DNA of 62,539 nt from Alphaproteobacteria bacterium (GTDB taxonomy: Bacteria; Pseudomonadota; Alphaproteobacteria; Rs-D84): contig WRJH01000001.1 in the NCBI GenBank assembly GCA_009782315.1, positions 1-62,539 of the forward strand, in the 5' to 3' direction. The translations under genes were made by a program, and so were the position numbers. Below, one piece after another: positions 1,533-60,193 of this stretch (the first letter of the stretch is position 1; each line of letters starts with the position of its first letter). The notes under the pieces were generated by a model, which did not search any database, was not told the origin of the DNA, and was given only the letters and a program-made list of their open reading frames with translations.

Positions 1533-3325
1533 TATTCTTTTTTATTTAGAAATTCGTTCCAGGCCTTTTGAATTCCGTTGGTTTGTGGAGTGTATCCGAA
1601 ATTCATATTGTTTAAGTATGTTTCCTTTTGTGTTGGTGTAAGGTTTGGATCATTTTTTATGCTCTCTATTACTCTTGCTGATGCGCTATTGTCCAAAAGG
1701 TTGCTCCCCCCCGTGCTGTCGCCGGCCACACCAAGAATTCCCGGTATATTTCCTTCTTTGACACTGTCACGTCTGACGCACATTTTTGTCGGGACAAGTC
1801 TTGTCTCTTTCATGCGCTGCAAGGCGTCAACGAAACCCTGGGCGTTGCAGAAATTCATCGCCTCTTGCACGGATACCTGGTTGCGTGTTGTTGAACCCGT
1901 CGGCGTCGGTGCCGGCGCGTCTTGCATGACCATCATTTGCAAAACGCCGATGTCGATATTCGATTGTTTCCGCCGGCGGGCGCCAAGAAAGCCGGAATCT
2001 AAAGCCTCGGACGCGCAGGCGACCTGGATATTGGAACCGCCGGTTGTAGTATAACAATTGGTAAGGGTTACGCTGCCGTCCTGATTTCTGGTTTCTGTGC
2101 AAAAGCACCCCTCCGTGCCATTTTTGTCTGGTGTCGCGCATGGTTTCCTGTTGCTCTGTTGTTCCGGGTATATCCAGTTTTGTTGCACAGTTTGATTATC
2201 GGTCAGCATTTTCATCAGCTGGCAGCCGCCAAGGTTCTGTGGCAAAACCTTGCCATTCTGGGCTTGGTTTGGCGGACAGGGCGGATTATTGCCAGTGCCG
2301 CAGCCATTGCAGTTATTGCTGTCTGGAGTCAGTGAATTATTCCACACATTCGCCCCACAGGACGCATAACGAATATGCTGGCCCGGCGTACACAAGAACT
2401 GGCCCCAGACGTGGCACGAACCGTTCAGCATCATATAAATATCCGTAATGTCGACGCCCAGCGTCTGGGCCATTATCAGCGCGTCGTATATGCTGTCCAA
2501 AACCTCTTCGTACGGGTCAAAGAAATTGTTTGCCAACTGCCGAAAGCGCGCCGCGCGCCGCGGACCGGTGCAATCGTCGCCCCGCGGGCCACAGCCGGCG
2601 TATTGGAACGTTGCATCCATGCTGGCATTAACGCGGGCCATAGCCGAACGAACGTCGTCCAGTTTTGATTCTATCATGCCCATCGCCTGTTGGCGGACCA
2701 GTATGTCCGCGCTTATCCCGCTGGCCGCCGCAATCTGAACCGCAGAATCTGATATGGTGGCGGTCGGCGCCGGGGCGGCCGCTTGCTGTTTCTGTTCGGC
2801 CAGGGCTGCCTCCATCCGTCGGCTGGCCTCTTGCTGTTCGGTTAATGCCGCTTCCATTCTTCGGTCGGTTTCCTGTTGCGAACGCATCAATTCTTGCCGC
2901 ATTAATTCTATCTGTTGGGCCGCCGCGTCGTTCGCGGTATTGCCGGCGTCCGCCCGCGCGACAACCGTCGAATTAGCAACCATTTGCGCCGCAATAGACT
3001 GTACCAGCGCGTCGCCGTATGATTTGCAAGTTTCGTTCGCCATTACACAGCCGTTCACTATCCCGACCGCAACCTGCATATCCGAACAACGTCCGCCGGC
3101 GCATTTGGGCGCGGCGCAACGTTGAATCAGCGCGTCGCAATTTCCAAAGTTCGCCGCCGCCGGCGCGCCCGGCGCACTGCGCGGGTTTGTTGTGGCATTC
3201 CATTGTGCGTTATTCATCGCGCCGCCGCCATCGTTGAACGATGTCAGATTTTGGGCGCACACTGGCGCGTGCGCCAGAGCATAGAGCATAGAGCATAGAG
3301 CAAAGATGCGGGCAGGTGTTTTCAT
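1532..3325 (-). CDS. secreted Cys-rich / coiled-coil hypothetical protein (597 aa)
   Basis: Signal peptide MKTPARIFALCSMLYALAHAPVCA/Q. Central coiled coil with internal duplication RRMEAAL(T/A)EQ. Many Cys in the flanking regions. Confidence 0.6.
   Translation of the reverse strand: MKTPARIFALCSMLYALAHAPVCAQNLTSFNDGGGAMNNAQWNATTNPRSAPGAPAAANFGNCDALIQRCAAPKCAGGRCSDMQVAVGIVNGCVMANETCKSYGDALVQSIAAQMVANSTVVARADAGNTANDAAAQQIELMRQELMRSQQETDRRMEAALTEQQEASRRMEAALAEQKQQAAAPAPTATISDSAVQIAAASGISADILVRQQAMGMIESKLDDVRSAMARVNASMDATFQYAGCGPRGDDCTGPRRAARFRQLANNFFDPYEEVLDSIYDALIMAQTLGVDITDIYMMLNGSCHVWGQFLCTPGQHIRYASCGANVWNNSLTPDSNNCNGCGTGNNPPCPPNQAQNGKVLPQNLGGCQLMKMLTDNQTVQQNWIYPEQQSNRKPCATPDKNGTEGCFCTETRNQDGSVTLTNCYTTTGGSNIQVACASEALDSGFLGARRRKQSNIDIGVLQMMVMQDAPAPTPTGSTTRNQVSVQEAMNFCNAQGFVDALQRMKETRLVPTKMCVRRDSVKEGNIPGILGVAGDSTGGSNLLDNSASARVIESIKNDPNLTPTQKETYLNNMNFGYTPQTNGIQKAWNEFLNKKE
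3275..3305. repeat. one-armed heptamer array (AGAGCAT x about 4)
   Basis: CAGAGCATAGAGCATAGAGCATAGAGCAAAG. The antisense strand encodes ALCSMLYAL of the 597-aa signal peptide. Confidence 0.8.
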
Positions 3326-3383
3326 GTTCTCTCTTGGGATTTATTTTATCAGAAAATCACAGAAAATACAATGGAAATGTGTG

Positions 3384-3530
3384 ACTACCCCGGATTTCCA
3401 TCGGCAACAAGTTGCCGGGAAATCCGACCCTTCTGGGAAGGGTATGTCAGAGTGCGATTATGCCCTTCATCAGAAGGGCCGGAAACCTGAAAGTCCGCGT
3501 AAGCGGACGACCAAAGGTTTCCGGGGTAGT
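3384..3530. other. structured intergenic element (nested hairpins), function unknown
   Basis: ACTACCCCGGA (3384-) pairs with TCCGGGGTAGT (-3530). Internal hairpins are CGGCAAC/GTTGCCG, ACCCTTC/GAAGGGT, CCCTTC/GAAGGG, GTCCGC/GCGGAC and CCGGAAACC/GGTTTCCGG. A T9 run follows at 3543-3551. Confidence 0.3.
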
Positions 3531-3580
3531 CCTTGCAACCAGTTTTTTTTTATTTTATAATCAAATCAAAGAGGTAACAG

Positions 3581-4633
3581 ATGAAAAAATTATTAATGAA
3601 ACTATTCGGGCCGAAAGCGCGCAAGACAACCGCCGGCGCATTGGCCGAAAAATTTGGGTTAGAGTTGCGCGGTGCGGCCGACACCGAAATAAAGGGAATC
3701 GCGCCCATCGCCGATGCGGCGGCCGGCCAGCTGACCTTTTATTCCACCGAACAAAACGCCGCGGCGTTCAAAATTCTGCCTATTGAAACTTTGCAAAAAA
3801 CAAAGGCGTCCGTCATAGTTGTCCAACCAGAATTTGTTAAAAAAGCGCCAAAGAGTGCGACGCTGTTGATAACCGAAAGCCCGCGCGGCGCGATGGTCAA
3901 AATCCTGGGCGAGATTTATGCCGAACCGAAACGCCGCGGAATTTCACGGCGCGCATACATCGAACGCGGCGTATTCTTTCGTGATAAAAAGTCATGCTAT
4001 GTCGGCCCGTTCGTCACAATCCGGCGCGGCGCCGTCATAGAGGCCGGCGTCACAATAGATTCCGGCGCATACATCGGGCCCGCCGCCGTCATCGGCGCAA
4101 ACACCGAAATCGCCGCGAACGCCTTTGTCGACAACGTTACCATGGGCGCCGACTGCGTAATAAAACCAAACGCCACCGTCGGCCGCGAAGGTTTCGGATA
4201 TACCCGCCAAGACGGCAAAAATACTCTTTTGCCGCATGCGGGCCGCGTAATACTTGGCGCGCGAGTTTCCGTCGGCGCGAATTCCATAGTCGACCGCGGA
4301 ATGATGGCCGACACGCGTATAGGCGACGGAACCAAAGTCGACAGCGGATGCTATGTTTCGCACGGCGTCGTCATCGGCCGCGAATGTTTCCTGGCCGGCG
4401 GAACGGGCGTCGCGGGCGGCGTCGTCGCGGGCGACAACGTTTTGTTCGGCGCGCAATGCGGAATCGCAAACAAAGTGCAAATCGGCGACAATGTCGAAAT
4501 CGGCGCGAAATCCGGAGTGTTCCAAAATGTCCCGTCGGGTTCGAAAATACTGGGATATCCCGCAATCAACGGCGTCGAATTTCTGCGGATGTTCGCATGG
4601 ACGAGAAAGCAGGTGAAAAAACAAACCGCGTAA
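3581..4633 (+). CDS. lpxD: UDP-3-O-acylglucosamine N-acyltransferase
   Basis: 350 aa with a left-handed beta-helix hexapeptide repeat region. LpxD-type motifs: GREGFGY, RVILGARVSVGANSIVDRG, DTRIGDGTKVD. Confidence 0.85.
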   Translation: MKKLLMKLFGPKARKTTAGALAEKFGLELRGAADTEIKGIAPIADAAAGQLTFYSTEQNAAAFKILPIETLQKTKASVIVVQPEFVKKAPKSATLLITESPRGAMVKILGEIYAEPKRRGISRRAYIERGVFFRDKKSCYVGPFVTIRRGAVIEAGVTIDSGAYIGPAAVIGANTEIAANAFVDNVTMGADCVIKPNATVGREGFGYTRQDGKNTLLPHAGRVILGARVSVGANSIVDRGMMADTRIGDGTKVDSGCYVSHGVVIGRECFLAGGTGVAGGVVAGDNVLFGAQCGIANKVQIGDNVEIGAKSGVFQNVPSGSKILGYPAINGVEFLRMFAWTRKQVKKQTA

Positions 4634-4650: not shown

Positions 4651-5449
4651 ACGGACAGGCCGAAAGCAGATACATTACGTTCCGCACGTCGCGGTTTATG
4701 GATACAGTAACGGTGCGCTGCAGGCCGTCCTGGTATGCGAATGCAAACGGCTGGCTTTTGAATTCCGGCGCCGCCGCGTACATTTGCGCAAACGGTGCCA
4801 GCAGACTGTCGAACCAATCGCGCGATTTGCAAAGACACGTGTTGCGGACGTCCGCCATCATTTCCGCCGCGCGATAGTCGCGCGCGTTCGCATCCAAATC
4901 GGCGTCCGATATCATCAGGCATCTTTGTCCCATCATATTGAAATTCGCGTCGTCGAATACGGATTTGTATACCGCCGTGTCGCTGGCGCCTGCGCGTTTC
5001 ATTCTGTAACTCATTCCGTCGCGACAGCATGCGTGCGACGCCCGTATCAACAGCTTGTACCGGTCGATCAAAGGACGCGCCGCTGGAGTGTCGCCGTTTA
5101 TTTCCCAATCGGATGTTTCCGCCAGGCGAACAAGTTCTTCCAAACGTTCCGGCCGCAGGTTACGCGGATTGTTTCCGACGGTTTCCCGCACGTGCGGTTT
5201 GGAAAGCCATATTTCGCATTCGCCCGACGACAGATATTCCGGACAGTCGGCGGACGGTCCGATTTTTAGGCGTTCTTCGGGCAGATATTCCCAATGCGTC
5301 GGAAACGCCGCCATCAGTTCGTCGATGCTGGAAAATTTTTCCCATTCGTAAATGGCCGCGTTTGCAGGTATTGCGCAAACAAGGCATAAGGCATAAGGCA
5401 TAAGGCATATGAGTTTTGTTTTTGTTAAAAATTTTTCCCACATTCTCAT
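4649..5449 (-). CDS. secreted hypothetical protein (266 aa)
   Basis: Signal peptide MRMWEKFLTKTKLICLMPYALCLVCAIPANA/A. The h-region is encoded by the GCATAAG heptamer array. Confidence 0.55.
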   Translation of the reverse strand: MRMWEKFLTKTKLICLMPYALCLVCAIPANAAIYEWEKFSSIDELMAAFPTHWEYLPEERLKIGPSADCPEYLSSGECEIWLSKPHVRETVGNNPRNLRPERLEELVRLAETSDWEINGDTPAARPLIDRYKLLIRASHACCRDGMSYRMKRAGASDTAVYKSVFDDANFNMMGQRCLMISDADLDANARDYRAAEMMADVRNTCLCKSRDWFDSLLAPFAQMYAAAPEFKSQPFAFAYQDGLQRTVTVSINRDVRNVMYLLSACP

Positions 5450-5485
5450 AATTTTTATGCCTTATGCCCTATGACTTATGCCTTA
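5381..5485. repeat. inverted heptamer array (AAGGCAT x4 / ATGCCTT x4)
   Basis: Left arm 5381-5409 and right arm 5456-5485 are reverse complements with 2 mismatches. The spacer contains the start codon of the 4649-5449 ORF. Confidence 0.85.
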
Positions 5486-6329: not shown

Positions 6330-6992
6330 CTATTTCACCACCGGCGATATGCGGATTTCTATGCGCCGGTTCATTTGCCGGCCCGTCGTGCTTTGGTCGG
6401 AAATCGGGCGCGCGCTGCCGCGGCCTATGACGAACATGCGTATCGGCTTTACCCTGTGCTGGGCCATAAACAGCGCGACGCGTTCCGCCATGTCGAAACT
6501 GAACCGCGTCGCGGCGTTCTGGTCCAGCGACGCGTCGGAATATCCCGCGATTTCAATGAACGTCCGGTCGAATTTGAAAAGAACGCGCGAAAGCGCGCCC
6601 AAAGTTTCCGCGCCGATTTCCGAAATTTCCGCTTCGTCCCGCTCCATAAAGGCGTCGCGGATCATAACCACCAAAACGTCGCCGCCTATGCGCGTGATTT
6701 GTATTCCGGTTTTGCGCATGGTGTCGGAAAGCTCTTGTTCCAGCAACGCCATATACGCCGCGGTTTCGTTCGGTTGCAGCGTTTTATGCCCCGCGTCAAG
6801 GTACAGCGGTTTTTTAGCCATTTTCGCCGTTTCCGTCATGGCGCCGAAACTGGATCCTTTCAGAATAGTGTTCCAGGCGCCGCGTTCGGGCGTTTTATAT
6901 CCGCCGCAGGCGACAAGCATTACAGAGCATAGAGCATAGAGCATAGAGCATAGATATACGCGTTTGAAAAATTTATTTTTTAATATGGACAT
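6330..6992 (-). CDS. OmpA/MotB-domain lipoprotein
   Basis: Lipobox MLVA-C. C-terminal OmpA-like peptidoglycan-binding motifs: IAGYSDASLD...RFSFDMAERVA, GRQMNRRIEIRI. Confidence 0.7.
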   Translation of the reverse strand: MSILKNKFFKRVYLCSMLYALCSVMLVACGGYKTPERGAWNTILKGSSFGAMTETAKMAKKPLYLDAGHKTLQPNETAAYMALLEQELSDTMRKTGIQITRIGGDVLVVMIRDAFMERDEAEISEIGAETLGALSRVLFKFDRTFIEIAGYSDASLDQNAATRFSFDMAERVALFMAQHRVKPIRMFVIGRGSARPISDQSTTGRQMNRRIEIRISPVVK

Positions 6993-7050: not shown

Positions 7051-7572
7051 TTATTCTACCAGAATAGCGACTTTGTTTTCCCGGTCGTTTTTGCAATTTT
7101 CGGCAGCCGGATCGGAAAACGAATCGTTTGTAATAACGTCCGCCGCCCAATCGAAATGCTGCGAAGACAGCCATGCGCAATCGGAAAAGTTAAGCCCGGA
7201 AAGAGTTATGAAAAATCCGTCGCCCAAAGGTTCCGGGGACAATTCCATGCGCGTCGCCATGCGCGGCGGCACATCCGTTTTCAACGCGCCCATTTTTACC
7301 ATATAATGCACGGAAATACCGTCGAATCCGTTTCGTCCCGCGAATAGTATCCGCGCGCCGCGCGCGATTTCGCGCAGCTCTTCGCCCGCCAGCATGCGCG
7401 ACTGGCGCGTCGACACGGTTTGGTATACTTGCAGCGTTATGGCGACCAGCACGCCGCCGATGGCCAGCGCGCCGATGGTTTCGATAAGCGACCGGCCGGA
7501 TTGGGAACTGAGAACTGAGAGCTGAGAGCTGAGAGCTGACCGACCAGTATTTTTATTAAAAAGTTTTTTCAT
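7051..7572 (-). CDS. prepilin-type N-terminal domain protein (type IV pilin/pseudopilin-like)
   Basis: Start at MKKLFNK (7572). G/RSLIETIGALAIGGVLVAITL resembles a class III signal, with Glu at +5 and a hydrophobic helix. The leader is unusually long and partly encoded by the GAGCTGA array. Confidence 0.5.
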   Translation of the reverse strand: MKKLFNKNTGRSALSSQLSVLSSQSGRSLIETIGALAIGGVLVAITLQVYQTVSTRQSRMLAGEELREIARGARILFAGRNGFDGISVHYMVKMGALKTDVPPRMATRMELSPEPLGDGFFITLSGLNFSDCAWLSSQHFDWAADVITNDSFSDPAAENCKNDRENKVAILVE

Positions 7573-7604
7573 GATTATCTCCATTGTGAAACCAGTTCTC
7601 AGTT
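7505..7604. repeat. heptamer array (GAACTGA/GAGCTGA x5) with short inverted partner
   Basis: 7505-7539 GAACTGAGAACTGAGAGCTGAGAGCTGAGAGCTGA. Partner CAGTTCTCAGTT at 7593-7604. The spacer holds the start codon at 7572. Confidence 0.7.
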
Positions 7605-9197
7605 TGTCCCTATTATTTCTGCGCCCGCGAACAGTTCCAGCGCGCCCGCGACCATCGGGTCGGATGCGGCGTCGTTTTTGGATTTTTCGGCAAGCGTGGG
7701 CGCGTTTTCGGATTCTTGAATTTGTTCCAGATTCCAATTTTTTCCGGTTGCGGTCAAAAGCCATTTGGAAAGTTTCGCCGCGAACGCCTTGTCGGCGCCG
7801 CGGTTAAAAAACTTTATGCGTCCGTCGCTAAATTCCGATACTTCGACATTATTGCTGAATTCCGAAAGCAGTATGGCCTCTTTGGCGGCGGTCAGCGCCG
7901 CGGTCAGGTCGGCCGCAGAATTAATCGTGGTCCGTAGCCCGTTATCCGTAGCCCGTGGAGATTCGGACATCGGCGCGGCGCAATCTGTTGTTTCTGGCGT
8001 TGGTTTTTCTTCCGTTGAATTACGGGTTACGGATGACGGACTGCGGACTGTGTTTTGGTTTTGCGAAATCAAAACGTCGACCGGAGGCATGTCCGCGATA
8101 TGCATCAGGCGCACCACCAGCATGTCGAAACACTGTTTTTGATTCGCGGATTTTTGCATTTCTTCGACCGACGCAACCATAACCTGCCACAGGCGCGACA
8201 ACGTGTTCAGCGTCACGCCGTCTATCGTCCCCAGAATCTGTTCCCGCTGGTCATGCGAAAAAGGCGAAGATGAAACGTCGCCCGCGCGCAGCGCCGGATG
8301 CATGCGCGTCGCCCAGTGCGTCCATTCCATCATGTCCGAAAGCAACAACGATAAATCCGCGCCGCTTTGATAAAGTTCGTCCGCCTTGGAAAGCGCCGCG
8401 CTTGTATCGCCCGACAGCAGAATTTTCATAAAGTCGACGACAACCCCGCGGTCCGCGCGTTTCAGCATGTTCAGCACGGCCGTTCTGTCGACGTTGCCGC
8501 CGGTTTGCGCGATAGCCTGGTCGAACAGCGAAAGGCCGTCGCGCACAGAGCCGTCCGCCGCGCGCGCCAAAAGTTCGTTCGCGTCGCCTTCAAGCGTTAC
8601 CTTTTCGCAGGAAGCAATCCATGCGAAATGTTTTTTCAAGACGTCGACCGGAACGCGGCATAAATCAAACCGCTGGCACCGCGAAAGTATAGTCACCGGG
8701 ACTTTTCTGATTTCCGTCGTGGCCAAGATGAATATGACGTGCGCGGGCGGCTCTTCCAATGTTTTAAGCAGCGCGTTGAACGCGCTGTTCGACAGCATGT
8801 GAACTTCGTCGATTATATAAACCTTGTACCGGCCGTTCGTCGGACGATACTGCGCCGCATCCATAATATCGCGCATATTGTCGACGCCCGTGTGCGACGC
8901 CGCGTCGATTTCCAAAACGTCTATATGCTGGCCCGCCGCAATAGCGTTGCAGTTTTCACAAGTGCCGCACGGCGCGGCCGTCGCCTTGGCCGACGATTGG
9001 CAATTCAAAGCTTTCGCAAGTATTCGCGCGGTCGATGTTTTTCCGGTGCCGCGGATTCCGGTGAATATATACGCGTGCGCTATGCGGTCCGTATTTATTG
9101 CGGTGGTCAGGGTCTTTACCAGAACATCCTGGCCGATAAGCGAATTGAAATCCTGGCTGCGGTATTTCCGCGCAAGCACGGTGTAATTTGCGGACAT
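7599..9197 (-). CDS. dnaX: DNA polymerase III subunit gamma/tau
   Basis: YRSQDFNSLIGQ, Walker A GIRGTGKTS, a Cys4 zinc module CGTCENC, DEVHMLS and a SRC sensor motif. Start set at MSANYTV (9197). Confidence 0.9.
   Translation of the reverse strand: MSANYTVLARKYRSQDFNSLIGQDVLVKTLTTAINTDRIAHAYIFTGIRGTGKTSTARILAKALNCQSSAKATAAPCGTCENCNAIAAGQHIDVLEIDAASHTGVDNMRDIMDAAQYRPTNGRYKVYIIDEVHMLSNSAFNALLKTLEEPPAHVIFILATTEIRKVPVTILSRCQRFDLCRVPVDVLKKHFAWIASCEKVTLEGDANELLARAADGSVRDGLSLFDQAIAQTGGNVDRTAVLNMLKRADRGVVVDFMKILLSGDTSAALSKADELYQSGADLSLLLSDMMEWTHWATRMHPALRAGDVSSSPFSHDQREQILGTIDGVTLNTLSRLWQVMVASVEEMQKSANQKQCFDMLVVRLMHIADMPPVDVLISQNQNTVRSPSSVTRNSTEEKPTPETTDCAAPMSESPRATDNGLRTTINSAADLTAALTAAKEAILLSEFSNNVEVSEFSDGRIKFFNRGADKAFAAKLSKWLLTATGKNWNLEQIQESENAPTLAEKSKNDAASDPMVAGALELFAGAEIIGTN
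7931..8050. repeat. inverted heptamer array (CCGTNNN family) inside dnaX coding sequence
   Basis: Left arm TCCGTAGCCCGTTATCCGTAGCCCGT. Right arm AATTACGGGTTACGGATGACGGACTGCGGACTG. Same unit type as 54692-54819. Spans about 120 nt and is translated as VRSPSSVTRNS...PRATDNGLRTT. Confidence 0.75.
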
Positions 9198-9276
9198 GTT
9201 TTTTCCTGTTTTTCGTCTGAAAAAGGATAGCAAATTTTAATGTATTTGCAATGAAAAAAAAGCTTTCGAGTAAATG

Positions 9277-9400: not shown

Positions 9401-11906
9401 ATTTTAATGGCGGGAAGCAGTCGCCGCCGGACATAGGACAGCAATTCCATCCCTGTTCCGCCATGTCGGTTAAAACTTCGCCAGTGCAGCAGCCCTGGCC
9501 GTCGGGCGGCGTGCCGTCTTCACAGAACAATCCCGGGGCCGTCGGCACAGACGGCATACCCGACTGCGGCGTCGGTATCTGCGCGGCCGGCGGATTGAAC
9601 GGATTTTGAATCTGGTTGTTCTGGTACTGCAGCCCCAGGACATTCTGGTTATAATCCTGTGTATATATCGGCTGGCCGGTGGTCGGATTATATCCGGTCA
9701 CATTGCCAACCCCCATTTGTTGCTGTTGATTATAGTACTGGTCCCAGCGGACGTTGTTTATCGCGTTGTATTGCTTTGTTTGGCAATAATATATAACGGT
9801 GCGATAATCTATGCCCAGCGTGCGCGCCTCGCTGTGGGCGTTCGCCGTCGGTTGGCCCGGGTTGCTCGGGTCGCAGAATTTTTCCATCTGGACGTTCAGC
9901 GAACGCACCTGTCCCATCCATTCCGATATGTCGGTGGTCGGCGTCAATGTCGTCGTGGGCTTCGTGGTGTCTGTAAGATTATCAGGGAGATAATCCGCAT
10001 ATTCCTTGCTGTATTCGGAAATGGCGCAACTGCGGGTATCCCCAGATTCTTGGGTGCCGCATGTCACAATCAAATCCGTAGGCGAAAACACCGTTATGCG
10101 CGTTCCGGCCGCGATTGAAAACGGCGGAGTGGTATTGTCCATCATATCCAGAACCAATCGCTGTACAACATTGTTCCATGTCGATATGATTTCTTGTTTG
10201 GCAAGTTCCGACGACCGGACCTGGCCCGATTGTGTCACCGTATTGTTATCCAAATCTATCTGGTTCACGAATCTGTCCGATATCGGCGCAATCAGATTGA
10301 CCGCCGCCGGGACCAATGCCGTCATCATCGGCATAATCATGCTTTCGATATAATCCGTGCTGCCCCGGCCGGGGACGCCAACGCGGCCCTGGCTGTCCGC
10401 CGAGAAAGGACGACGACTGACAAAGTTGAATTCAACGCCGTCCGGACGGACAAACCGGTACCAATCGATTTGCATGCGGCCGATGGCGCGGTACGGTCCG
10501 GGCAATTCGCCCGTCGCATAGCCCAACAATTGCGTTCCGGCGGGCAATATGATTGTCCGGCCGTTATCGGAATAAACATGGCGGTCGACGGTCGCCGTAA
10601 CGGGCAGGCGCGCATATCCCTTTTCAATTGTCCGCGCGTCCGCGCGAACTTCGTTGACAATCGTCGCGGGTATGGGTTTATATTGGCGCAGGACAAACTG
10701 GCGGTCCGTCGGTTTGCTGGATACGGTCGACGCGGCGCTTGTGCCTGTTGTGCTGGCCAGCGATGTTGGGCCGAAAGTGGCGTCGGACGGCGCCGCATCG
10801 CGCAGGCCCCCAAAAGGACGCATGCCGCCGCCGGATGCCGCCGGTCCCGCGACCACGGTCGAAGGCAATTGGCCGTTTATCTGGCGCGCGCGATTCACCG
10901 TGCGCGGTGCGCGCGGTATGCTGGAAAGTTGCGGCATAATGGTTGTTGTCGGGCCGAACGCGCGTCCGCCGATGCGTTCCGCGTCCGAACCGATAGATTT
11001 GGACGGGTTTTGCAAATCATATATAAGACCAGTGTTCATGTCGTATTCGCCGACGGGCTTTTTGCAATCATAGTCGTCGAAAAGATGGAACAGAAAGCGT
11101 CCGCCGGCGGGTCGCACCCAGCCGGACTGTCGGCCTGATAAATCATATCCGGGGAACGCGAATTCAAGACAATCGTATGATACCGGTGCCGCGGGCGCGG
11201 GCACTGGCATTGGCGCAGGCACCGACATCGGTGGTGGCGGCGTATAATCCGCCGCCTGGTCGGGAAAGAAATCCAGATCCGGCAAAACCGGTTCGAATTC
11301 ATCCGCAAAATCTGGCGTGTCGTCAAAAAAGACGGGCGCGGGCATTGGCGCAGGTTCCGATTTAACGTCTTTTGCCTTTGCGGAAATCAATAAAGGAATG
11401 CGCGCCATATCGGACATGTCCGCCGGAATATCCGCGCCGTGATATATTATTTGGATTTCAAGTCCCGTGTCCGAAATCGGCGCGTCTGGTTTCCAGGAAA
11501 GGGTTATGGCGCACGGTTCCGTCTGTGAAACGGGACCCACGGTCGTGCAAAAGGATTTCTGCGACAGCCCAGCCGGCAACGCATCGCCCGCGCCGGAATT
11601 CTTTGCATTCGGCACAATCAAAACTTCGCGGATAATGGTTTCGGCCGAAGGCGTCACATTTATAGTCTGGGTGCGTTCGTCCCCGACCGCGACGTTTCGC
11701 CATTCTATTTCGGCCGGGTCCAGCGACAGCACGACAGCACCGGCGGCCTTACCGCCCGTTGTCTGTTTACCGGGGCCCGACAGTAAAAGTAAAAGCAGAA
11801 TCACAACAACCAAAAACGCGGCAAACAAAAACAGCCACTGTATGTGAACAGGGGTGTTTTGTCTTAATTCTACGAAAACTTGTTTTAACTTTTTCATTTT
11901 TATCAA
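9399..11906 (-). CDS. virB10: VirB10/TrbI-family type IV secretion protein with long N- and C-terminal extensions
   Basis: N-terminal TM, Pro-rich region, then a TrbI/VirB10 core (VTATVDRHVYSDNGRTIILPAGTQLLGY...IGRMQIDWYRFVRPDGVEFN...DSQGRVGVPG...AAGTRITVF). About 223 extra C-terminal residues. Confidence 0.8.
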   Translation of the reverse strand: MIKMKKLKQVFVELRQNTPVHIQWLFLFAAFLVVVILLLLLLSGPGKQTTGGKAAGAVVLSLDPAEIEWRNVAVGDERTQTINVTPSAETIIREVLIVPNAKNSGAGDALPAGLSQKSFCTTVGPVSQTEPCAITLSWKPDAPISDTGLEIQIIYHGADIPADMSDMARIPLLISAKAKDVKSEPAPMPAPVFFDDTPDFADEFEPVLPDLDFFPDQAADYTPPPPMSVPAPMPVPAPAAPVSYDCLEFAFPGYDLSGRQSGWVRPAGGRFLFHLFDDYDCKKPVGEYDMNTGLIYDLQNPSKSIGSDAERIGGRAFGPTTTIMPQLSSIPRAPRTVNRARQINGQLPSTVVAGPAASGGGMRPFGGLRDAAPSDATFGPTSLASTTGTSAASTVSSKPTDRQFVLRQYKPIPATIVNEVRADARTIEKGYARLPVTATVDRHVYSDNGRTIILPAGTQLLGYATGELPGPYRAIGRMQIDWYRFVRPDGVEFNFVSRRPFSADSQGRVGVPGRGSTDYIESMIMPMMTALVPAAVNLIAPISDRFVNQIDLDNNTVTQSGQVRSSELAKQEIISTWNNVVQRLVLDMMDNTTPPFSIAAGTRITVFSPTDLIVTCGTQESGDTRSCAISEYSKEYADYLPDNLTDTTKPTTTLTPTTDISEWMGQVRSLNVQMEKFCDPSNPGQPTANAHSEARTLGIDYRTVIYYCQTKQYNAINNVRWDQYYNQQQQMGVGNVTGYNPTTGQPIYTQDYNQNVLGLQYQNNQIQNPFNPPAAQIPTPQSGMPSVPTAPGLFCEDGTPPDGQGCCTGEVLTDMAEQGWNCCPMSGGDCFPPLK

Positions 11907-11972: not shown

Positions 11973-13472
11973 TTGCACCCTTACCACATGGCATGCGCCG
12001 GTTTGGAATTTCTGCAATTTGTCGCACAGCGTCTGGGCGTCGGTTATATTCGCGAACGGCCCGATGCGCAGACGGTAAAGGCGCGCGGTGTTTCCGGATT
12101 CGCCCAAATCGCCCACGCCCTGTTCGTCGACCGCAAAGAACACCATGTCTTTGTATGGCGCAAGCAGGCCCGCGCCGTCAGTGCCGCTGAACTGGGCCAG
12201 CAGTTTCGTCCAATGGTCGTTAAGCGCCTTTATCGACGGGTCGGATTTAAGTTCGACCGCAACGCCTGTCTGGTTACTGCGTATCAGGGGGATGTTGCTT
12301 TGCGGCAAGAATGCGCCCGCAGTATTGCGATTTTGCGGAACCATGTTCATGCCCTGGCCACCCTGTGCCGGCGCGCCGCCGAAACCGGGCTGTCCAGCTG
12401 GAACCATCATCGGTTGCGGTTGCTGCATCATCATGGGTTGACCCGGCATCATCATCGGCTGTCCGGTCGGACCAATCAAAGGCATTCCGCCGTATCCCAC
12501 GTTGTTGAACGACTGGGTAGAGAATATGCTTTGCGCGACGTTCGCTTCGGCCAATGACATCACCGACGCCGTGTCCGCAATCAGGAACGGTTTCGCGCGC
12601 TGTTTTATGCAGACTATGCGCTGGCCGCTGCGCAGGACCATGTCGCCCACCGCTTCGACAATCAACAGGCGACCGTGTTCGCCGTCCGTTCTGAATCCGA
12701 CCGGGCTTTCGCCCCCTTCGATTAATATCGACACAACCGGGCGCTGGGTCATCGCGATAACCTTGTCCCCGAAATCAATGTACGTGAATATCCGGTCGCG
12801 CCACACGCGTTCCGGCGCAATAACGTAATCGTCCGGATTCGGCACGAATATATCCAAATCAAACCGGAATTCGGACGGGTCGATTTTCATCGTTTTTATC
12901 CATCCGTAATCTTCGCCGTCCGGCGATGATACGCGGCCCCCCGCGGCGCCCCGGCCCGGGAATATGGAATTCATGCCGCCGCCCTGTGTAGTCGCGCCCG
13001 CGCCGCCCATGGGCAGCGAAGCGTTGTTGTCCAGAACGATGTCAACCATCGTGTATGTTATTTCCGACGCGTTGGCCGGTTCGCTGCGCAGATAAAACAG
13101 ATATATGTTTCCGGATTTGCCGGTGATGATAAGATTTGTGTCGGAACCCTGGTTTGTGGTTTCAGGCGTCAGCATGATTGTGCGACCGCCTTTTTGCGCG
13201 TCGAATACGAACAGGCCGGTGCTGCCGATAGTTCCGTCTTCAATGGCTTCACCCGCGGGCAGGTTAATCATCGTGACCATTCCGTTGCGAAGACGTATAG
13301 GCAGGACCGTGCCCGGACTCCACGTCAATTGGGCGAATCCGGGTCGCACGGAACCGGGCGCCATGTTGACATTCGGATTGTCCCACGCCTCTTGCACGCC
13401 CTGGGCGCGCGCGTTTTGCAGGAACGCAAAACAGAACATTGGGAATAGGGCATAGAGCATAAGTTTTTTCAT
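11970..13472 (-). CDS. virB9: VirB9/TrbG/CagX-family protein fused to a C-terminal SPOR domain
   Basis: Signal peptide MKKLMLYALFPMFCFAFLQNARA. VirB9-like N domain (PIRLRNGMVTMINLP...GKSGNIYLFYL). Met/Pro/Gln-rich linker. C-terminal LYRLRIGPFANITDAQTLCDKLQKFQTGACHVVRV matches the SPOR pattern. Confidence 0.7.
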   Translation of the reverse strand: MKKLMLYALFPMFCFAFLQNARAQGVQEAWDNPNVNMAPGSVRPGFAQLTWSPGTVLPIRLRNGMVTMINLPAGEAIEDGTIGSTGLFVFDAQKGGRTIMLTPETTNQGSDTNLIITGKSGNIYLFYLRSEPANASEITYTMVDIVLDNNASLPMGGAGATTQGGGMNSIFPGRGAAGGRVSSPDGEDYGWIKTMKIDPSEFRFDLDIFVPNPDDYVIAPERVWRDRIFTYIDFGDKVIAMTQRPVVSILIEGGESPVGFRTDGEHGRLLIVEAVGDMVLRSGQRIVCIKQRAKPFLIADTASVMSLAEANVAQSIFSTQSFNNVGYGGMPLIGPTGQPMMMPGQPMMMQQPQPMMVPAGQPGFGGAPAQGGQGMNMVPQNRNTAGAFLPQSNIPLIRSNQTGVAVELKSDPSIKALNDHWTKLLAQFSGTDGAGLLAPYKDMVFFAVDEQGVGDLGESGNTARLYRLRIGPFANITDAQTLCDKLQKFQTGACHVVRVQ

Positions 13473-13490: not shown

Positions 13491-14243
13491 CTAGTTCGCA
13501 CGATGGCGATCCAAAGGATCGCGCAGGCCGGGTCCCATGCGGTATTGATACACCAGTATGCCCAGCGGGTTTTCCAACCGGTCGGACCATTTTACCGACG
13601 GCTGAAATTTAATTCCTATGACGATTGTATAATCTTTTGACTCTTCATGTCCAGCATTATCGAAACAAAAATGACGAAACCGGACCAGGTGTTCCGAAGA
13701 CATCGTATCGTCGCCACCGTCCGCCGGACGGTACGGGTCAATGTTCCCGATAAATTCCACCCGGCATGTCGCGGGGAAGGTTTCGTTCGGGGCGGCCTCC
13801 ATAACCGCCAGCCACATTCCCGTCCGCGCGAATTCGGCGAAAACATCCGGCGCGGACCACAGACCCACCGGGCAGTCGCGCCGGCACCAGCGCGCATGCA
13901 TCGCGCTGATTTGCGGTATTATTTCGTTCCGCATGCGTATGTATTCCCGTATGAAATTTTCCTTGTAAATTTCGATGTTCGAATCCGTTACGGAAAACGA
14001 TTTCAAACGGATTTCGGTGTTCGACAACGGCTGTGACGTCAGAAAGAAAATCTGGGTTCTGTTCAGCGGCATAATGTTGGCCAAAGTCGCGACCAGAACG
14101 ACCGCCGTCGCAAGCGCGGCCGCAAAGACAAATGTCATGATTTTGGACATCAATGCCGGTGGTTCCACTGTTCGCATAATCTCTCTCTTGATTATACGGC
14201 ATATTAGACAAAAAATATAAGGCGGCGCAAGTGGTTTTTTCAA
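13491..14243 (-). CDS. virB8: VirB8-family type IV secretion protein
   Basis: Single TM (FVFAAALATAVVLVATLANI), then a periplasmic domain with IEIYKENFIREYIRMRNEI and the C-terminal ENPLGILVYQYR motif. The start is uncertain (alternative Met at 14177). Confidence 0.75.
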   Translation of the reverse strand: MKKPLAPPYIFCLICRIIKREIMRTVEPPALMSKIMTFVFAAALATAVVLVATLANIMPLNRTQIFFLTSQPLSNTEIRLKSFSVTDSNIEIYKENFIREYIRMRNEIIPQISAMHARWCRRDCPVGLWSAPDVFAEFARTGMWLAVMEAAPNETFPATCRVEFIGNIDPYRPADGGDDTMSSEHLVRFRHFCFDNAGHEESKDYTIVIGIKFQPSVKWSDRLENPLGILVYQYRMGPGLRDPLDRHRAN

Positions 14244-14346
14244 CTAACAACTAACAGCTAACAACTAACAGCTGGAAAAATAACAAAAATTATATGACTT
14301 GTGAGCGTAGTGAACGCAAAAGTTGTTAGTTGTTAGCTGTTAGTTG
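14241..14346. repeat. inverted heptamer array (CTAACAA/CTAACAG)
   Basis: CAACTAACAACTAACAGCTAACAACTAACAGC ... GTTGTTAGTTGTTAGCTGTTAGTTG, with a spacer of about 49 nt. Confidence 0.85.
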
Positions 14347-14474
14347 TTTTTTTACTTTACACGCCTATTATTAATGTTTTATACTACTTTCCACTTGATT
14401 TTTGGAAAATGTGTGGTACCGTGCGCGGGATTATAGCGGGGTGAAATGGTAAAATCACACAAAAACAAAGATTT

Positions 14475-30362: not shown

Positions 30363-30446
30363 CAGAGCATAGATAATAGAGCATAGATAATGTTTGGATT
30401 TTTAAGAAAGAAATCGCTAGCCACCAGCCACCAGCCACCAGCCACC
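30363..30446. repeat. two one-armed heptamer arrays flanking the uppS start (AGAGCAT/AGATAAT type, then AGCCACC x4)
   Basis: 30363-30390 CAGAGCATAGATAATAGAGCATAGATAA. 30419-30446 AGCCACCAGCCACCAGCCACCAGCCACC, translated as ATSHQPPAT in the UppS N-terminal extension. Confidence 0.75.
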
Positions 30447-35055: not shown

Positions 35056-35113
35056 AGTCGCAAATAGTCGGAAGTCGATAGTCTTAAGTCTATAGACTAT
35101 CGACTTTAGACTA
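35056..35113. repeat. inverted heptamer array (AGTCNNN family) between the portal gene and the next gene
   Basis: AGTCGCAAATAGTCGGAAGTCGATAGTCTTAAGTCTA / TAGACTATCGACTTTAGACTA, with no spacer. Confidence 0.8.
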
Positions 35114-39788: not shown

Positions 39789-40724
39789 TTAAATTTTAAA
39801 TTCCGTTTTTGCATTAATCATTCGCGCGGCACCGCGCGGGCGCAATGCAATCGGCGTCATTCGGAGCGCGCCCGCAACCGCGTCCAGGCCGTCGTCGCGA
39901 TTAACCGTCGCCGCGGGCGACCAGTCCGCCATTTCATCAAATAAACCCGTTTCGCAGACGCGTTCATGCGCATATAATCGTCCGGTGCCCAACAGCGGTT
40001 CTATGGCGTCCAGTATGCGCGTTTCCTTTTTCGCGCTGTTTATAATTTTCCGTATGACCAATGGCTGGCCCCGCGCAATCGACGCGCCCCGTAAAATTTC
40101 AGGTAACGCGTTGCCGATACCATTGACCTCGATTGCAATGTGCCGCAATCCAAAGGCAGCCATGAAATCCAAAACCTGGTCGCATTGCGTGGCAAACGGA
40201 TGCGGGTCGTCCGGGGCCGCCGCCAGATATTTTATGTCGTGTATAAAAGCCGCCCGCGTTTTATCATCGCGCAGGACAAGCGCGATTACGGAACCGTCCG
40301 CGCCGCGCCGCGCCGAAGATGGGTCCCAATAGACCGCATAGCCTGTTATTGATAAATTGCTCCCCCCATCGGGGGGAGCCGAAAGACACAAAGTGTCTTT
40401 CGGTGGGGGGCAAAAAAACTCTTCGCTTATCCCCCCACCGGCGCTGGCGCGCCGACTCCCCCCAAGGGGGGAGTAATTTAATTTTGCGGCGCGCAAATCC
40501 AAATCGCCGTTATAAAATTTTATCGCGTCGGGGTCCAGGCGGGATTTTTCTTCGGATATATATTCCAACATCATCTGGGCGGAAAAATGCCGCGGGCCGA
40601 CGGTTTGGCGAATCTGGTCTATTTTTTCGGGCGGAAAAACCGCAGGCCATGCGGGCGCACCGCCCGCGTCCATTATGGGCATGCGCAAAACGCGGTACCC
40701 GCGCAAAAATGGTGGTGTGTTCAT
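39789..40724 (-). pseudogene. terL: phage terminase large subunit, C-terminal (nuclease) half only
   Basis: YWDPS..GADGSVIALV, HIAIEVNGIG and NRDDGLDAVAGA resemble the RNase H-like nuclease motifs of TerL. There is no ATPase domain here. The complementary N-half is at 56578-57174. Confidence 0.7.
40355..40479. repeat. R1 multi-hairpin element, copy B (inside the terminase C-half ORF, inverted relative to copy A)
   Basis: Its reverse complement has the same five modules as copy A. It is translated in frame as NYSPLGGSRRASAGGGISEEFFCPPPKDTLCLSAPPDGGSNLS. Confidence 0.85.
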
Positions 40725-42659: not shown

Positions 42660-42822
42660 TTTTTGCTCCGATTTTACAATTTTTGTAATTTTATAGGGAT
42701 TTAATAGAAAAGTCAAGATATTATGGAAGAGACTTTACATAGCACTTAAAAGGTGGTGTGTTTGGCATGTTTAACAAAATCCTTGCAAACGGGTAAATTC
42801 TGGGTTAATATTGGCCCGCCGT

Positions 42823-42898
42823 TGGGGTATAGTTCAGTCGGTAGAACACCGGACTGTTAATCCGTATGTCGCTGGTTCGAGCCCAGCTACCCCAGCCA
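42823..42898 (+). tRNA. tRNA-Asn (GTT)
   Basis: Acceptor TGGGGTA/TACCCCA, anticodon loop CTGTTAA, T-arm GGTTCGAGCCC, encoded CCA. Confidence 0.85.
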
Positions 42899-44754: not shown

Positions 44755-46836
44755 GTGACCAAAGAATTATTTGATTTGCTGAATACTGATTTACAGTTTG
44801 TAAAGGGCATCGGCCCGGTGCTGGCCGCGCGCCTTTCCGATTTGCTGGGCGGACGGCGGGTTTTGGATTTCTTGCTGCATAAACCGCATTATGTAAAGCC
44901 GCGCGGGATTCAGGACTCTGTTCTGGACGCAAAACCCGGCGAAGTCTTGACCATTCCGGTCCAGGTTGTCAGCCATAAAAAAGGCGGCGTTTTCAAATCC
45001 GGCAAGCGGGCGCCGACGCAGATACTTTGCCGCGACAAAATGGGCGCGGAATTAAAGGTGTATTTTTACAATGTGAATTTTCTGGATTATTGGTTGGAAA
45101 AACTGCCCGTAAACGAATGGCGTATTATCAGCGGCCGATTGGAATTTTCCGGCCGCGGCGCGTCCATTACCCATCCGGACTTTATCGAAAAAATCGAAGA
45201 CCGGCATAAAATCCCGGAATACCAGGCGATATATCCGATTGGCGAAGGATTGACGCAGCGCGTCATGGCGAACGCAAGAGATGCAATTTTTTCAAAATTG
45301 CATCAGAGCATAGAGCAAAGAGCAAAGAGCATAGATGATTTTTTTAATTCCCTTGAAAAAATTCACTATCCGAAATCGAACGAAGACCTGGCGGCGGGGA
45401 ATGAAAACATCGCGGCGCTGGCGTACGCCGAATTGTTCGCGCACCAGGTTGCGATTGTTCAGACGCGCGAACGGCGAAAGCGCGGAATCGTCGGCCGCTC
45501 TATTTCCGGCGACGGGACCCTTCGTGAAAAATTATACGCGTCTTTGCCGTTCAAACTGACCGCGGCGCAAAGCCGCGCGATAGAGGAAATAGAGGCCGAC
45601 ATGGCAAGCGCCGAGCCCATGCTGCGCCTGGTCCAGGGAGACGTCGGTTCGGGCAAGACAATGGTTGCATTGGCGGCCGCTTTGAACGCGGCGGAATGCA
45701 AATTGCAGACGGCGATTATGGCGCCGACGGATACGCTTGCCCAACAGCATTTTGCAAAGATAAAACCTATGTGCGACGCGTTCGGCGTCGTGTGCGAAAT
45801 ATTGACCGGCCGGGACAAGGGCGCCGCGCAGAAAGAAAAACTGATTTCCATACGTTCGGGCCGCACAAAGATTGTAATCGGCACGCACGCGCTGTTCCAG
45901 GAATCTGTCGAATACAAAGATTTGGGGCTGGTGATTATCGACGAACAACATCGCTTTGGAGTGGCCCAGCGCGCGGCGCTGTGCGCAAAGGGCGCGAATC
46001 CGGATTTCGTCGCGCTGTCGGCGACGCCGATTCCGCGGACTTTGTCCATGACGATTTACGGCGATATGGATGTTTCTGTAATCGACCAGAAGCCGGCCGG
46101 CCGCATGCCTATTAAAACCGTGACTTTGGCCGTGGACCGGATTATGGCGCTGGTCGGCCGGGTAAAGGCGCAATTGGATGCGGGTGCGAAAGTATTCTGG
46201 GTCTGTCCGCTGGTTGCGGAAAACGAAGACATGGATTTTGCTGCGGCGGAAACACGGTATGAATTCTTGAAAAAATATTTCGGCGACGATGTCGGTCTGG
46301 TCCATGGACAAATGGATAAAAAATCACGCGATTGCGTCATGGCGGAATTCGCGGACACAGGCGGCAAGATAAAATTATTGGTCGCGACCAGTGTGATAGA
46401 GGTCGGCATAGACGTGCCGTCCGCGACGATTATGGTGATAGAGAATGCGGAAAAATTCGGCCTGTCCGCATTGCACCAATTGCGCGGGCGCGTGGGCCGC
46501 GGCGGGGACCAGTCTTTTTGCGTGCTGCTGCACGGCGAAAGATTGACCGAAGATGGCGAAAAGCGTCTGGCCGTTTTGGTTGACACCGACGACGGGTTTG
46601 CGATTGCGGAACAGGATTTGATGATGCGCGGCGCGGGCGAATTGCTGGGCAGCCGGCAAAGCGGTTGGATACCGTATCATTTCGTCGATTACCGCGAACA
46701 TCGCGATTTGTTCAAACTGGCGGCGCGGAATGCGGTTGAATTGGTCGAATCGGATTCGAAATTGGAATCGGCGGCGGGCGCCGGCGCGCGCGATTTGATG
46801 TATATATTCGACCGCGATGTAAAAATTTCCGGGTGA
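44755..46836 (+). CDS. recG: ATP-dependent DNA helicase RecG
   Basis: 693 aa, GTG start. Wedge domain, helicase motifs GDVGSGKT, DEQHRFGV, SATPIPRT, LHQLRGRVGRG. Confidence 0.92.
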   Translation: MTKELFDLLNTDLQFVKGIGPVLAARLSDLLGGRRVLDFLLHKPHYVKPRGIQDSVLDAKPGEVLTIPVQVVSHKKGGVFKSGKRAPTQILCRDKMGAELKVYFYNVNFLDYWLEKLPVNEWRIISGRLEFSGRGASITHPDFIEKIEDRHKIPEYQAIYPIGEGLTQRVMANARDAIFSKLHQSIEQRAKSIDDFFNSLEKIHYPKSNEDLAAGNENIAALAYAELFAHQVAIVQTRERRKRGIVGRSISGDGTLREKLYASLPFKLTAAQSRAIEEIEADMASAEPMLRLVQGDVGSGKTMVALAAALNAAECKLQTAIMAPTDTLAQQHFAKIKPMCDAFGVVCEILTGRDKGAAQKEKLISIRSGRTKIVIGTHALFQESVEYKDLGLVIIDEQHRFGVAQRAALCAKGANPDFVALSATPIPRTLSMTIYGDMDVSVIDQKPAGRMPIKTVTLAVDRIMALVGRVKAQLDAGAKVFWVCPLVAENEDMDFAAAETRYEFLKKYFGDDVGLVHGQMDKKSRDCVMAEFADTGGKIKLLVATSVIEVGIDVPSATIMVIENAEKFGLSALHQLRGRVGRGGDQSFCVLLHGERLTEDGEKRLAVLVDTDDGFAIAEQDLMMRGAGELLGSRQSGWIPYHFVDYREHRDLFKLAARNAVELVESDSKLESAAGAGARDLMYIFDRDVKISG
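45304..45337. repeat. one-armed heptamer array (AGAGCAT/AGAGCAA) inside recG
   Basis: CAGAGCATAGAGCAAAGAGCAAAGAGCATAGATG, translated as QSIEQRAKSIDD. Confidence 0.7.
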
Positions 46837-54691: not shown

Positions 54692-54819
54692 AGTTATCCG
54701 TAACCCGTTATCCGTTTTCCGTAATTCATACCGTTTATGTTCCGTGCCATAGGTTTGTTTGCGCACACAAGTTGAACATTAAAGAATTACGGACTACGGG
54801 TTACGGATAACGGTCTACG
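54692..54819. repeat. inverted heptamer array (CCGTNNN family)
   Basis: AGTTATCCGTAACCCGTTATCCGTTTTCCGTAATT ... AATTACGGACTACGGGTTACGGATAACGGTCTACG, followed by a separate perfect hairpin TTTTTCTTGC-GCAA-GCAAGAAAAA (54821-54846). Confidence 0.85.
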
Positions 54820-59395: not shown

Positions 59396-59410
59396 CTTTA
59401 ATACCTCTTA

Positions 59411-59938: not shown

Positions 59939-59949
59939 GGTTTAATCCT

Positions 59950-60189: not shown

Positions 60190-60193
60190 TTTT

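Follow-up and report, generated by a model that had tools for sequence, protein, structure and literature searches.

The window analysed here is a stretch of 62,539 nt from an alphaproteobacterial genome (contig WRJH01000001.1, assembly GCA_009782315.1). The organism belongs to the termite/insect-gut branch of the order Rs-D84, which includes Ca. Enterousia and in which most members have genomes below 1 Mb (PMC12306168). The element under study is an inverted array of 7-nt units lying within dnaX, the gene for DNA polymerase III gamma/tau (Table 1). The open reading frame (ORF) of dnaX reaches a TTG at 9233 (7599..9233, 544 aa), while the real start is the ATG of the 532-aa protein. DNA_pol3_delta2, DNAX_ATPase_lid, DNA_pol3_gamma3 and DUF3646 were identified in DnaX by Pfam, and its orthologs, which are 68-82% identical, are named DNA polymerase III subunit gamma/tau. 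On the 544-aa numbering, domain III occupies residues 248-390 and the C-terminal DUF3646 residues 438-541. The element falls at residues ~395-434, equal to ~383-422 of the 532-aa DnaX. In an AlphaFold model with 24 orthologs as input, residues 382-421 of the 532-aa protein are coil with a predicted local distance difference test (pLDDT) score below 50. As the gap in the Pfam coverage coincides with this low-scoring stretch, the element corresponds nearly residue for residue to the disordered tether that links domain III with the C-terminal domain. It is in frame at a tolerated site, in a segment which is hypervariable in all aligned orthologs. An earlier reading made from the letters of the window (the sequence-only reading) had placed the array in a poorly conserved linker after the conserved N-terminal domains, and both the Pfam boundaries and the model agree with this location.

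The same reading had described an inverted CCGTNNN array at 7931-8050 with both arms translated, and four CCGTNNN units facing four NNNACGG units were found there. On the plus strand, the CCGT cores start at 7932, 7939, 7946 and 7953 (CCGTNNN x4, 7932-7959). The ACGG cores start at 8022, 8029 and 8036 (NNNACGG units, 8020-8048), with a fourth, degenerate unit carrying GCGG at 8043. A repeat finder delimited the arms to 7930-7956 and 8022-8048, 27 nt each, 85% complementary and spaced by 65 nt. The pattern CCGTNNNCCGTNNNCCGT, representing three cores in succession, showed 7 matches in the window, all confined to the dnaX locus and to 54698-54813, and none in 100 dinucleotide-preserving shuffles of the window. 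The arms are more degenerate than most arrays of the window, since they were not reported by Tandem Repeats Finder (TRF) at score 40. The arm proximal to the 5' end of the message begins ~9 nt past conserved Q-N codons, where the arrays of relatives align in phase, and the other arm abuts the conserved I-N-S-A-A-D-L start of the C-terminal domain. The interior between them is A/C-rich on the sense strand and has little structure. The peptide quoted in the sequence-only reading, ...NTVRSPSSVTRNSTEEKPTPETTDCAAPMSESPRATDNGLRTTINS..., is the exact translation of the dnaX ORF. Its claim of an in-frame span of 120 nt stood in part: the segment is in frame and stop-free, while the length is a delimiting choice, the ends are not sharp and 7931-8050 is not codon-aligned. 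Preservation of the frame is little telling, because any surviving stretch in an essential ORF must keep it. For the same reason, and because of the fuzzy boundaries, the proposed search for a bias towards lengths that are multiples of three was dropped as uninformative. Rfam, at the gathering threshold and at a permissive E-value, showed no match to the element and returned only tRNAs and chance microRNA-like matches.

A second member of the CCGT family, which the sequence-only reading had taken to be of the same unit type, is situated between a secreted-protein gene and a helix-turn-helix (HTH) regulator gene and has stops in all six frames. The likeness goes beyond the CCGT core, as three of the four arms at the two loci end in CCGTAATTC and three of the four have the 13-mer ATCCGTAACCCGT in common. 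Only the arms are alike; the interiors are unrelated, and no full-length conservation was observed. Reading of the sequence around both copies revealed no target-site duplication or flanking direct repeat. The dnaX arms of the window match this 54.7-kb copy far better than they match any orthologous dnaX array. In the related locus L001, 29 of 34 nt agree between the dnaX array and the virB8-secE array of the same genome, and the agreement extends to the 'variable' positions and to the TTAA at the inner boundary. This makes two genomes whose dnaX arms are nearly identical to an intergenic copy of their own. Likewise, four AGAGCAT loci of the window have the common ends CAGAGCAT...AGAT. By our own estimate, ~0.13 locus pairs sharing a unit are expected by chance (~25 loci, ~2,340 possible unit classes), and more than 10 were seen. 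As the sharing exceeds chance and the interiors are unrelated, there is transfer of sequence from locus to locus, with the interiors remaining in place. The nusG-rplK spacer has arms of GGCATAA x4 in the window and of GGCACTA x4 in L001, all units of both arms being changed around a conserved core, which indicates that arms evolve apart from interiors.

The linker was compared among orthologs as the stretch between HIADMP and KE.LL at 78 loci, and 24 DnaX orthologs of 68-82% identity were aligned. Among the orthologs without heptamer periodicity, 68 of 70 have a linker of 44-62 aa and the other two one of 76-77 aa. The eight array-bearing orthologs have 57-79 aa, and the DnaX of the window has 67 aa by the same measure. 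The sequence-only reading had suggested looking in an ortholog alignment for a gap of about 40 residues. No such gap was found opposite the element in the 24-sequence alignment or among the 78 measured linkers, and the array-free linkers are of ordinary length. Minus 40 residues, the tether of the window would be shorter than any of the 78, so the element replaces an ordinary linker and is not added to one. No empty or intermediate site was found in a closer relative: the sole other contig with an identical DnaX (L005) has 100% identical DNA as well, and for the next relative identity falls to 82%. An array is present at this position in seven relatives, with units that differ between genomes, which argues that the site was occupied before these species diverged and against a single discrete insertion. 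In the window, L001, L002, L003, L007, L009 and L011, the left array begins no more than ~10 nt from the same Q-N codons. Most of their units are only 1-3 nt apart, namely AGTCCGY in the window, AGAGTGC in L001, AGAGCGA in L002 and L011, AGAGCGC in a second array of L002, AAAGCGC in L009 and AGAAGGC in L003, which has in addition a non-complementary ACTCCAC array downstream. The unit of L007 is CAAAGTT. A different structure was seen in L008 (termite metagenome-assembled genome Lab288P3bin109, ~11140-11300), where an imperfect palindrome of ~150 nt without heptamer periodicity lies in frame in the dnaX linker. A 180-nt stretch of this linker folds at -90.7 kcal/mol (z -12.9), and the linker is one of the two longest array-free ones (76-77 aa), ~20 aa above the usual length.

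Folding of the dnaX span of the window gave -45.8 kcal/mol for the sense RNA (z -4.6 against shuffles) and -66.5 kcal/mol for the antisense RNA (z -6.2). The hairpin of the message is ~20 kcal/mol weaker than its complement because each of the four mismatched arm positions gives C.A in the mRNA but G.U in the antisense RNA. Among 12 inverted pairs of the window tested, only the dnaX pair showed this asymmetry. Its direction is the one expected if structure in the message were selected against, but four sites are few (p ~0.06). A strong linker hairpin was found in five of eight termite-lineage linkers (window, L001, L002, L008 and L011; z -2.8 to -12.9, with -4 to -9 in the window, L001 and L002). 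It is absent from L003 (z +0.5), L009 (+1.1) and L007 (-1.0), and array-free orthologs have z ~0. No X XXY YYZ slippery heptamer, which would be due 5-9 nt before the stem, was found 5' of the hairpin in the window (codons CAA AAC CAA AAC ACA), L001 or L002. We see no sign of a dnaX-specific role in gamma/tau production, and the dnaX copy looks like a passenger.

The survey of arrays covered the 62 kb of this genome and ~20 kb for each relative. A simple autocorrelation scan, with array thresholds of our own choosing, detected 26 period-7 arrays in 62.5 kb, compared with 0-3 for each of the periods 4-6 and 8-12 and 0.04 in shuffles. The period-7 arrays of the window were independently confirmed by TRF. 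In the window and 12 related loci the arrays span 21-44 nt and have 3-6 units, never more and typically ~4, and 73 canonical units were distinguished among 108 arrays. Units of the window are diverse, including AGAGCAT (4-5 loci), AAGGCAT (2), AGGTAAT (2), GACT-core (~6), CAACTAA, CCGT-core (2), CAGCCAC, GAGCTGA and others. Most arrays form inverted pairs 0-90 nt apart, located in intergenic spacers, signal-peptide cores, a RecG loop and the DnaX linker. Hairpin repeats of 7-base units fill low-constraint stretches, saturating those of this roughly 1-Mb-class genome, and number hundreds genome-wide. The class is specific to the termite/insect-gut branch within Rs-D84. Relatives of this branch have 4-12 arrays per 10 kb around their dnaX loci. 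Of 80 dnaX loci, taken from species-level genomes of Rs-D84 / Ca. Enterousia, 59 are free of arrays, including essentially all mammal- and bird-gut Enterousia. No literature describing such repeats in Rs-D84 was found.

A metagenome scan with CCGTNNNCCGTNNNCCGTAATTC, made in search of more copies from this organism, gave none among the matches listed, which were mostly unrelated and often high-GC contigs. CCGT-core inverted heptamer arrays among these matches occur in metagenome contigs of GC 0.57-0.70 (L101, L113, L121/L159/L161, L181 and L205) and in termite-gut contigs (L093, L103 and L142). Some CCGT arrays of the unrelated high-GC environmental contigs end in CCGTAATTC like those of the window, and other heptamer arrays are also present there. 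As CCGT hairpins occur in such unrelated contigs, the four-heptamer architecture is not confined to Rs-D84.

The dnaX segment is probably best read as an old, tolerated and translated hairpin repeat whose arms are renewed by copying within the genome. On balance we favour the whole explanation, in which the segment belongs to a class of short hairpins that is lineage-specific and spread over the genome, each arm consisting of about four 7-nt units in tandem. Translation of the dnaX copy yields a disordered linker, relatives have arrays of other units at the same position, and the arms nearly match an intergenic copy of the same genome. The linker would have held a heptamer array since before the termite-gut species diverged. 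Slippage would homogenise the units within an arm, fold-back copying of the quasipalindrome type would keep the two arms complementary, and short-patch copying from other arrays of the same genome would supply new arm sequence. The copying step is the tentative part of this mechanism. Renewal of the arms would give each species a different unit while the linker length stays in the tolerated range. The dnaX element would be a tolerated passenger without a dnaX-specific function, surviving because the tether need only be hydrophilic, stop-free, in frame and ~45-65 residues long.

Several points weigh against this interpretation. Gene conversion between repeats of 28-33 nt is inefficient in model bacteria. 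Arm renewal is read from end states, because the nearest relative is only 82% identical in DnaX and no empty or intermediate state was seen. MAFFT aligns repeats in phase whatever their ancestry, and the linker could be the sole tolerant slot of the gene, which arrays colonised independently. The strong hairpins in five of eight linkers leave room for some structural selection. A transposase, RAYT, reverse transcriptase or array-binding protein may be encoded outside the 62 kb of the window (~20 kb in each relative). The explanation also does not account for the limit of ~4 units or for the 7-nt period.

Transposition is an unlikely alternative, in which a palindromic mobile element of ~120 nt, similar to a Rickettsia palindromic element (RPE) or a miniature inverted-repeat transposable element (MITE) and mobilised in trans, was inserted in frame into the dnaX linker. 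The 27-nt terminal inverted arms and the second copy of the same family in the window fit this picture, as does the in-frame, stop-free state of the dnaX copy when the intergenic copy has stops in all frames. Discrete 11-aa (33-nt) palindromic inserts in RecG of related species and the ~150-nt palindrome of the L008 linker are also in its favour. However, no ortholog shows the ~40-aa gap, the interiors of the two CCGT copies are unrelated, there is no target-site duplication, seven relatives have arrays of other units at the same position, and the nusG-rplK arms flank an interior conserved in the host. Pfam scanning of 30 window ORFs detected no transposase, RAYT or reverse transcriptase, but only a UPF0102/YraN-type nuclease, an RloA/RloB-type pair and T7-like structural genes. 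RPEs are families of ~150 bp, conserved over the full length, which encode a conserved peptide and are discrete insertions relative to orthologs (PMC10969869). The parallel with RPEs drawn in the sequence-only reading holds for a palindromic, hairpin-capable family, dispersed and shared with an intergenic locus, that is translated at a tolerant site. As with RPEs, the repeats occur in a reduced alphaproteobacterial genome, both intergenic and in frame at peptide-tolerant sites (PMC10969869). The parallel fails for the discrete gain and the conserved peptide: here only internally repetitive heptamer arms of ~28 nt are shared, around unrelated interiors and with no gap in orthologs. A likeness to a MITE exists in the terminal inverted repeats (27 nt, 85% complementary), but a target-site duplication is missing. 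No parent insertion sequence or transposase was seen among the 30 ORFs scanned in 62 kb, and one may lie elsewhere in the genome.

Tandem heptamers in other bacteria provide a second comparison. Descriptions of short tandem heptamers in cyanobacteria date back to the early 1990s, and the repeats called STRR in that group are reportedly the subject of Mazel et al. in 1990 and Elhai et al. in 2008. The arrays of the window belong to the same broad class, with at least three tandem 7-nt units, over-representation of period 7 and unit families at several unrelated loci in and between genes. The closest published architecture is that of Geobacter metallireducens, where families of four or five tandem heptanucleotide repeats are found in and between genes. 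Its GGACCGG family has 49 copies, and the five-unit MTYCTGA 'class 3' sites are drawn as strand-switching pairs (PMC2700814). Geobacter differs in belonging to another phylum and in having few unit families, for which the annotation is putative regulatory RNA or regulator sites. Neither turnover in orthologous slots nor arrays that code for signal peptides or linkers are reported there, nor presence and absence between sister lineages. TAACTGA repeats of Beggiatoaceae, cyanobacteria and Bacteroidetes are also tandem 7-nt repeats, with 2-6 units in Beggiatoaceae (PMC4679880). Like the present arrays they occur at several per 10 kb, are mostly intergenic, are patchy across phyla and have an unexplained mechanism (PMC4679880), and the TAACTGA unit itself occurs in L003 downstream of dnaX. 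In TAACTGA repeats and STRR one or few units dominate, in direct orientation upstream of start codons, with only one inverted pair reported from the Beggiatoa genome, whereas the present arrays as a rule come in inverted pairs, use dozens of different units and are translated in frame. REPINs consist of two inverted short repeats forming a hairpin and are RAYT-dependent and extragenic (PMC3116915). The present arrays resemble them in the hairpin pair, the high copy number, the vertical persistence of populations and the presence of different families in orthologous spacers (PMC3116915). Unlike the present arrays, the repetitive extragenic palindromic sequences (REPs) are not internally tandem and lie outside genes, while dnaX and at least seven other arrays of the window are within ORFs. 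REPs are also tied to a RAYT gene, and none was seen in the 62-kb window.

A broader reading, about as improbable as transposition, joins these systems and takes the four-heptamer hairpins to be a new kind of DNA that renews itself. Hairpins already present, or stretches without constraint, would be overwritten with short heptamer arrays by a putative activity that spreads horizontally and works by copy-and-replace, and that would thereby write linkers, signal-peptide cores and intergenic stems. The same activity would be behind the repeats of Geobacter, the cyanobacterial STRR, those of Beggiatoaceae and those of the high-GC soil contigs. If this were true, the array-rich Rs-D84 genomes of the 1-Mb class and their array-free sisters would allow the responsible gene to be found by presence/absence comparison.

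A purely local origin seems quite doubtful. Replication slippage of 7 nt with template-switch correction of quasipalindromes would produce the arrays in place, nothing would move, and shared units would be convergent. The ~73 canonical units among 108 arrays are consistent with such a process, and so are the filling of any unconstrained slot and the occurrence of different units in orthologous slots. Heptamers are given, after Mrazek and co-workers, as the commonest long simple-sequence repeats of many bacteria, with polymerase slippage as the proposed cause (PMC4679880). This process does not explain near-identical arrays, 'variable' positions and ends included, at unrelated loci of one genome, nor the more than 10 shared-unit pairs where ~0.13 are expected among ~25 loci. 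A single 7-nt gain or loss would moreover put an essential gene out of frame.

It is about as doubtful that the arrays are candidate binding sites for an abundant protein, with one unit for each subunit or domain and the dnaX copy being incidental. The omega protein of pSM19035, a ribbon-helix-helix protein which binds 7-bp heptads in direct and inverted arrays, would be an analogue of the candidate type, together with a single-strand binder of the cold-shock or S1 type. The arrays have a strict 7-nt register of 3-6 units, and several families (CCGT, GACT) show a 4-nt core with 3 variable positions. CspB, as cited in PMC4679880, binds heptamer direct repeats with one protein per heptamer, and the same architecture is found in unrelated phyla (the metagenome matches listed; PMC2700814). 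Dozens of unrelated cores in one genome of the ~1-Mb class, however, fit sequence-specific binding poorly. Some arrays also encode signal peptides, where selection is on the peptide, and the Pfam scan of 30 window ORFs brought up no candidate protein.

In the E. coli dnaX -1 frameshift signal, an mRNA hairpin follows domain III and acts with an A AAA AAG-type slippery site. The hairpin of the window is similarly stable and directly follows DnaX domain III, but it has no such site, is not conserved among relatives and has its structure weakest on the mRNA strand. A role in stalling or shifting ribosomes, or in recruiting RNase III, that would give a short gamma-like product as in E. coli is very unlikely: the position of the hairpin at the gamma/tau boundary, the stops reached within the first arm by both alternative frames and the strong hairpins of five of eight termite-lineage linkers would suit this role, yet the slippery heptamer (window, L001, L002) is lacking, the hairpin is missing in L003, L007, L009 and all array-free orthologs, the C.A mismatches weaken the sense structure relative to the antisense one, and hairpins of the same build are found everywhere in the genome. 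A programmed frameshift signal was rejected for the lack of a slippery site and of conservation of the hairpin.

The sequence-only reading had also advised a search for other arrays inside ORFs. Such arrays were found in frame within the window in signal peptides, UppS and RecG. They encode the hydrophobic cores of five signal peptides, those of an OmpA lipoprotein, VirB9 and three unknown secreted proteins. ATGCTCT reads MLYALCS and ATGCCTT reads MPYALCL. The strand used follows the resulting peptide, since ATGCTCT gives MLYALCS whereas AGAGCAT contains a stop. In L003 the orthologs of two of the secreted proteins, including the OmpA lipoprotein, have (TTCCTTA)x4 at the same place (L003 7792-7835 and 9229-9274), reading FLIPYSL. 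Spacers show similar exchange. The orthologous virB8-secE spacer is occupied by a TGCA-type heptamer pair in L001 and by a non-heptamer GC-rich palindrome in L003. The virB9-virB10 spacer has TAGTCGN, a GACAGTG-like hairpin or GAGGAAT in different species, with flanks conserved right to the element.

Table 1. Coordinates of dnaX, its array and other array features in the window. aa, amino acids; ".", no single strand assigned.
Feature	Position	Strand	Details
dnaX (DNA polymerase III gamma/tau)	7599..9197	-	532 aa (P0001) from ATG at 9197; from ORF list, Pfam and orthologs
dnaX array, mRNA-5'-proximal arm	8020..8050	-	coding strand AGTCCGC AGTCCGT CATCCGT AACCCGT, then AATTC; peptide ..VRSPSSVTRNS..
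dnaX array, interior between arms	7960..8019	-	peptide ..TEEKPTPETTDCAAPMSES..; unrelated to interior of 54.7-kb copy
dnaX array, mRNA-3'-proximal arm	7930..7959	-	four heptamers, CCGT cores on + strand; peptide ..SPRATDNGLRT..
Intergenic CCGT-family sister copy	54692..54819	.	arms ~54696-54726 and 54785-54813; fold z -7.2
Signal-peptide core array	3274-3307		secreted protein; peptide IFALCSMLYALA
AAGGCAT / ATGCCTT inverted pair	5377..5485	.	arm 5378-5412 encodes signal-peptide core of next gene, LICLMPYALCLV
Single (ATGCTCT)x4 array	6921..6956	-	hydrophobic core of OmpA-family lipoprotein signal peptide, YLCSMLYALCSV
Signal-peptide core array	13441-13461		VirB9
CAACTAA / TTAGTTG inverted pair	14238..14352	.	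fills virB8-secE spacer
Array-encoded N-terminal extension	30415		UppS
AGAGCAT-type array	45304..45336	+	in frame in RecG variable loop, QSIEQRAKSID
Signal-peptide core array	53838-53874		secreted protein

RecG was considered as an independent case for a discrete insertion and rejected, as the array again lies in a hypervariable loop and the length of the slot varies from 18 to 48 nt. The slot, between KL and DFF, is occupied in the window by 36 nt of array and in L206 by a GC-rich palindrome of 48 nt, and the closest relative has 18 nt of plain sequence there. The RecG of L206 (4001-6163; that of L207 is at 1605-3671) has two discrete GC-rich palindromic inserts of 11 aa (33 nt), the first of which is also present in P0126, and both of which are missing from the other aligned orthologs. 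With these inserts, the lineage has another sort of in-frame element besides the arrays, one that is truly RPE-like.

Immediately 3' of dnaX, at 7500-7542, a (GAGCTGA)x5 array is situated within the leader of a pilin-like ORF (..GRSLIETIGALAIGG..) or shortly ahead of that leader, and the same spacer of L003 (7064-7146) has ~10 TAACTAA/TAACTGA units with an inverted partner. An exact 28-nt block, (AGAGCATAGATAAT)x2, occurs twice (30364-30391 and 53769-53795), each time immediately before a start codon, once that of uppS and once that of a gene for a secreted protein. Both of these ORFs carry a heptamer array within the first 30 codons. T7-like phage structural genes (head-tail connector, terminase fragment, tail tubular protein, capsid and capsid-assembly protein) are found at 35106-36476, 39789-40724 and 57653-62514, amid housekeeping genes (DnaB, RecG, BamA). 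In L206 a T7-type terminase adjoins dnaB and recG. Either a decayed prophage or a domesticated particle could account for these scattered genes. Just upstream of the HTH regulator, at the edge of one T7-like block, lies the 54.7-kb CCGT copy. A 15/30-nt tandem repeat at 61357-61789 (~28 copies, 64-73% matches) separates the T7-like capsid gene from the scaffold gene and may code for a repetitive protein. At 40790-42716 an RloB-like protein is encoded beside an AAA_21 (AbiEii/RloA-like) ATPase, a probable defence or abortive-infection pair, with a tRNA gene adjacent (42823-42895).

As the linker and signal-peptide sequences are repeat-derived, they should be taken neither for conserved motifs nor for alignment anchors. 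Seven is not a multiple of three, so a change in unit number in a coding array would switch the gene off, and some of these genes could be phase-variable. The CTCTT coding repeats of the Neisseria opa genes are a comparison for such switching in the signal-peptide arrays. In this organism selfish or mutation-driven repeats appear to be the source of parts of essential proteins, namely the tether of tau and, in OmpA, VirB9 and further secreted proteins, the core of the signal peptide. That this comes about without discrete insertions extends the idea behind RPEs. The heptamer repeats of cyanobacteria, Geobacter and Beggiatoaceae are still unexplained, and Rs-D84, with its tiny genomes, dense arrays and array-free close relatives, offers a tractable system for them.

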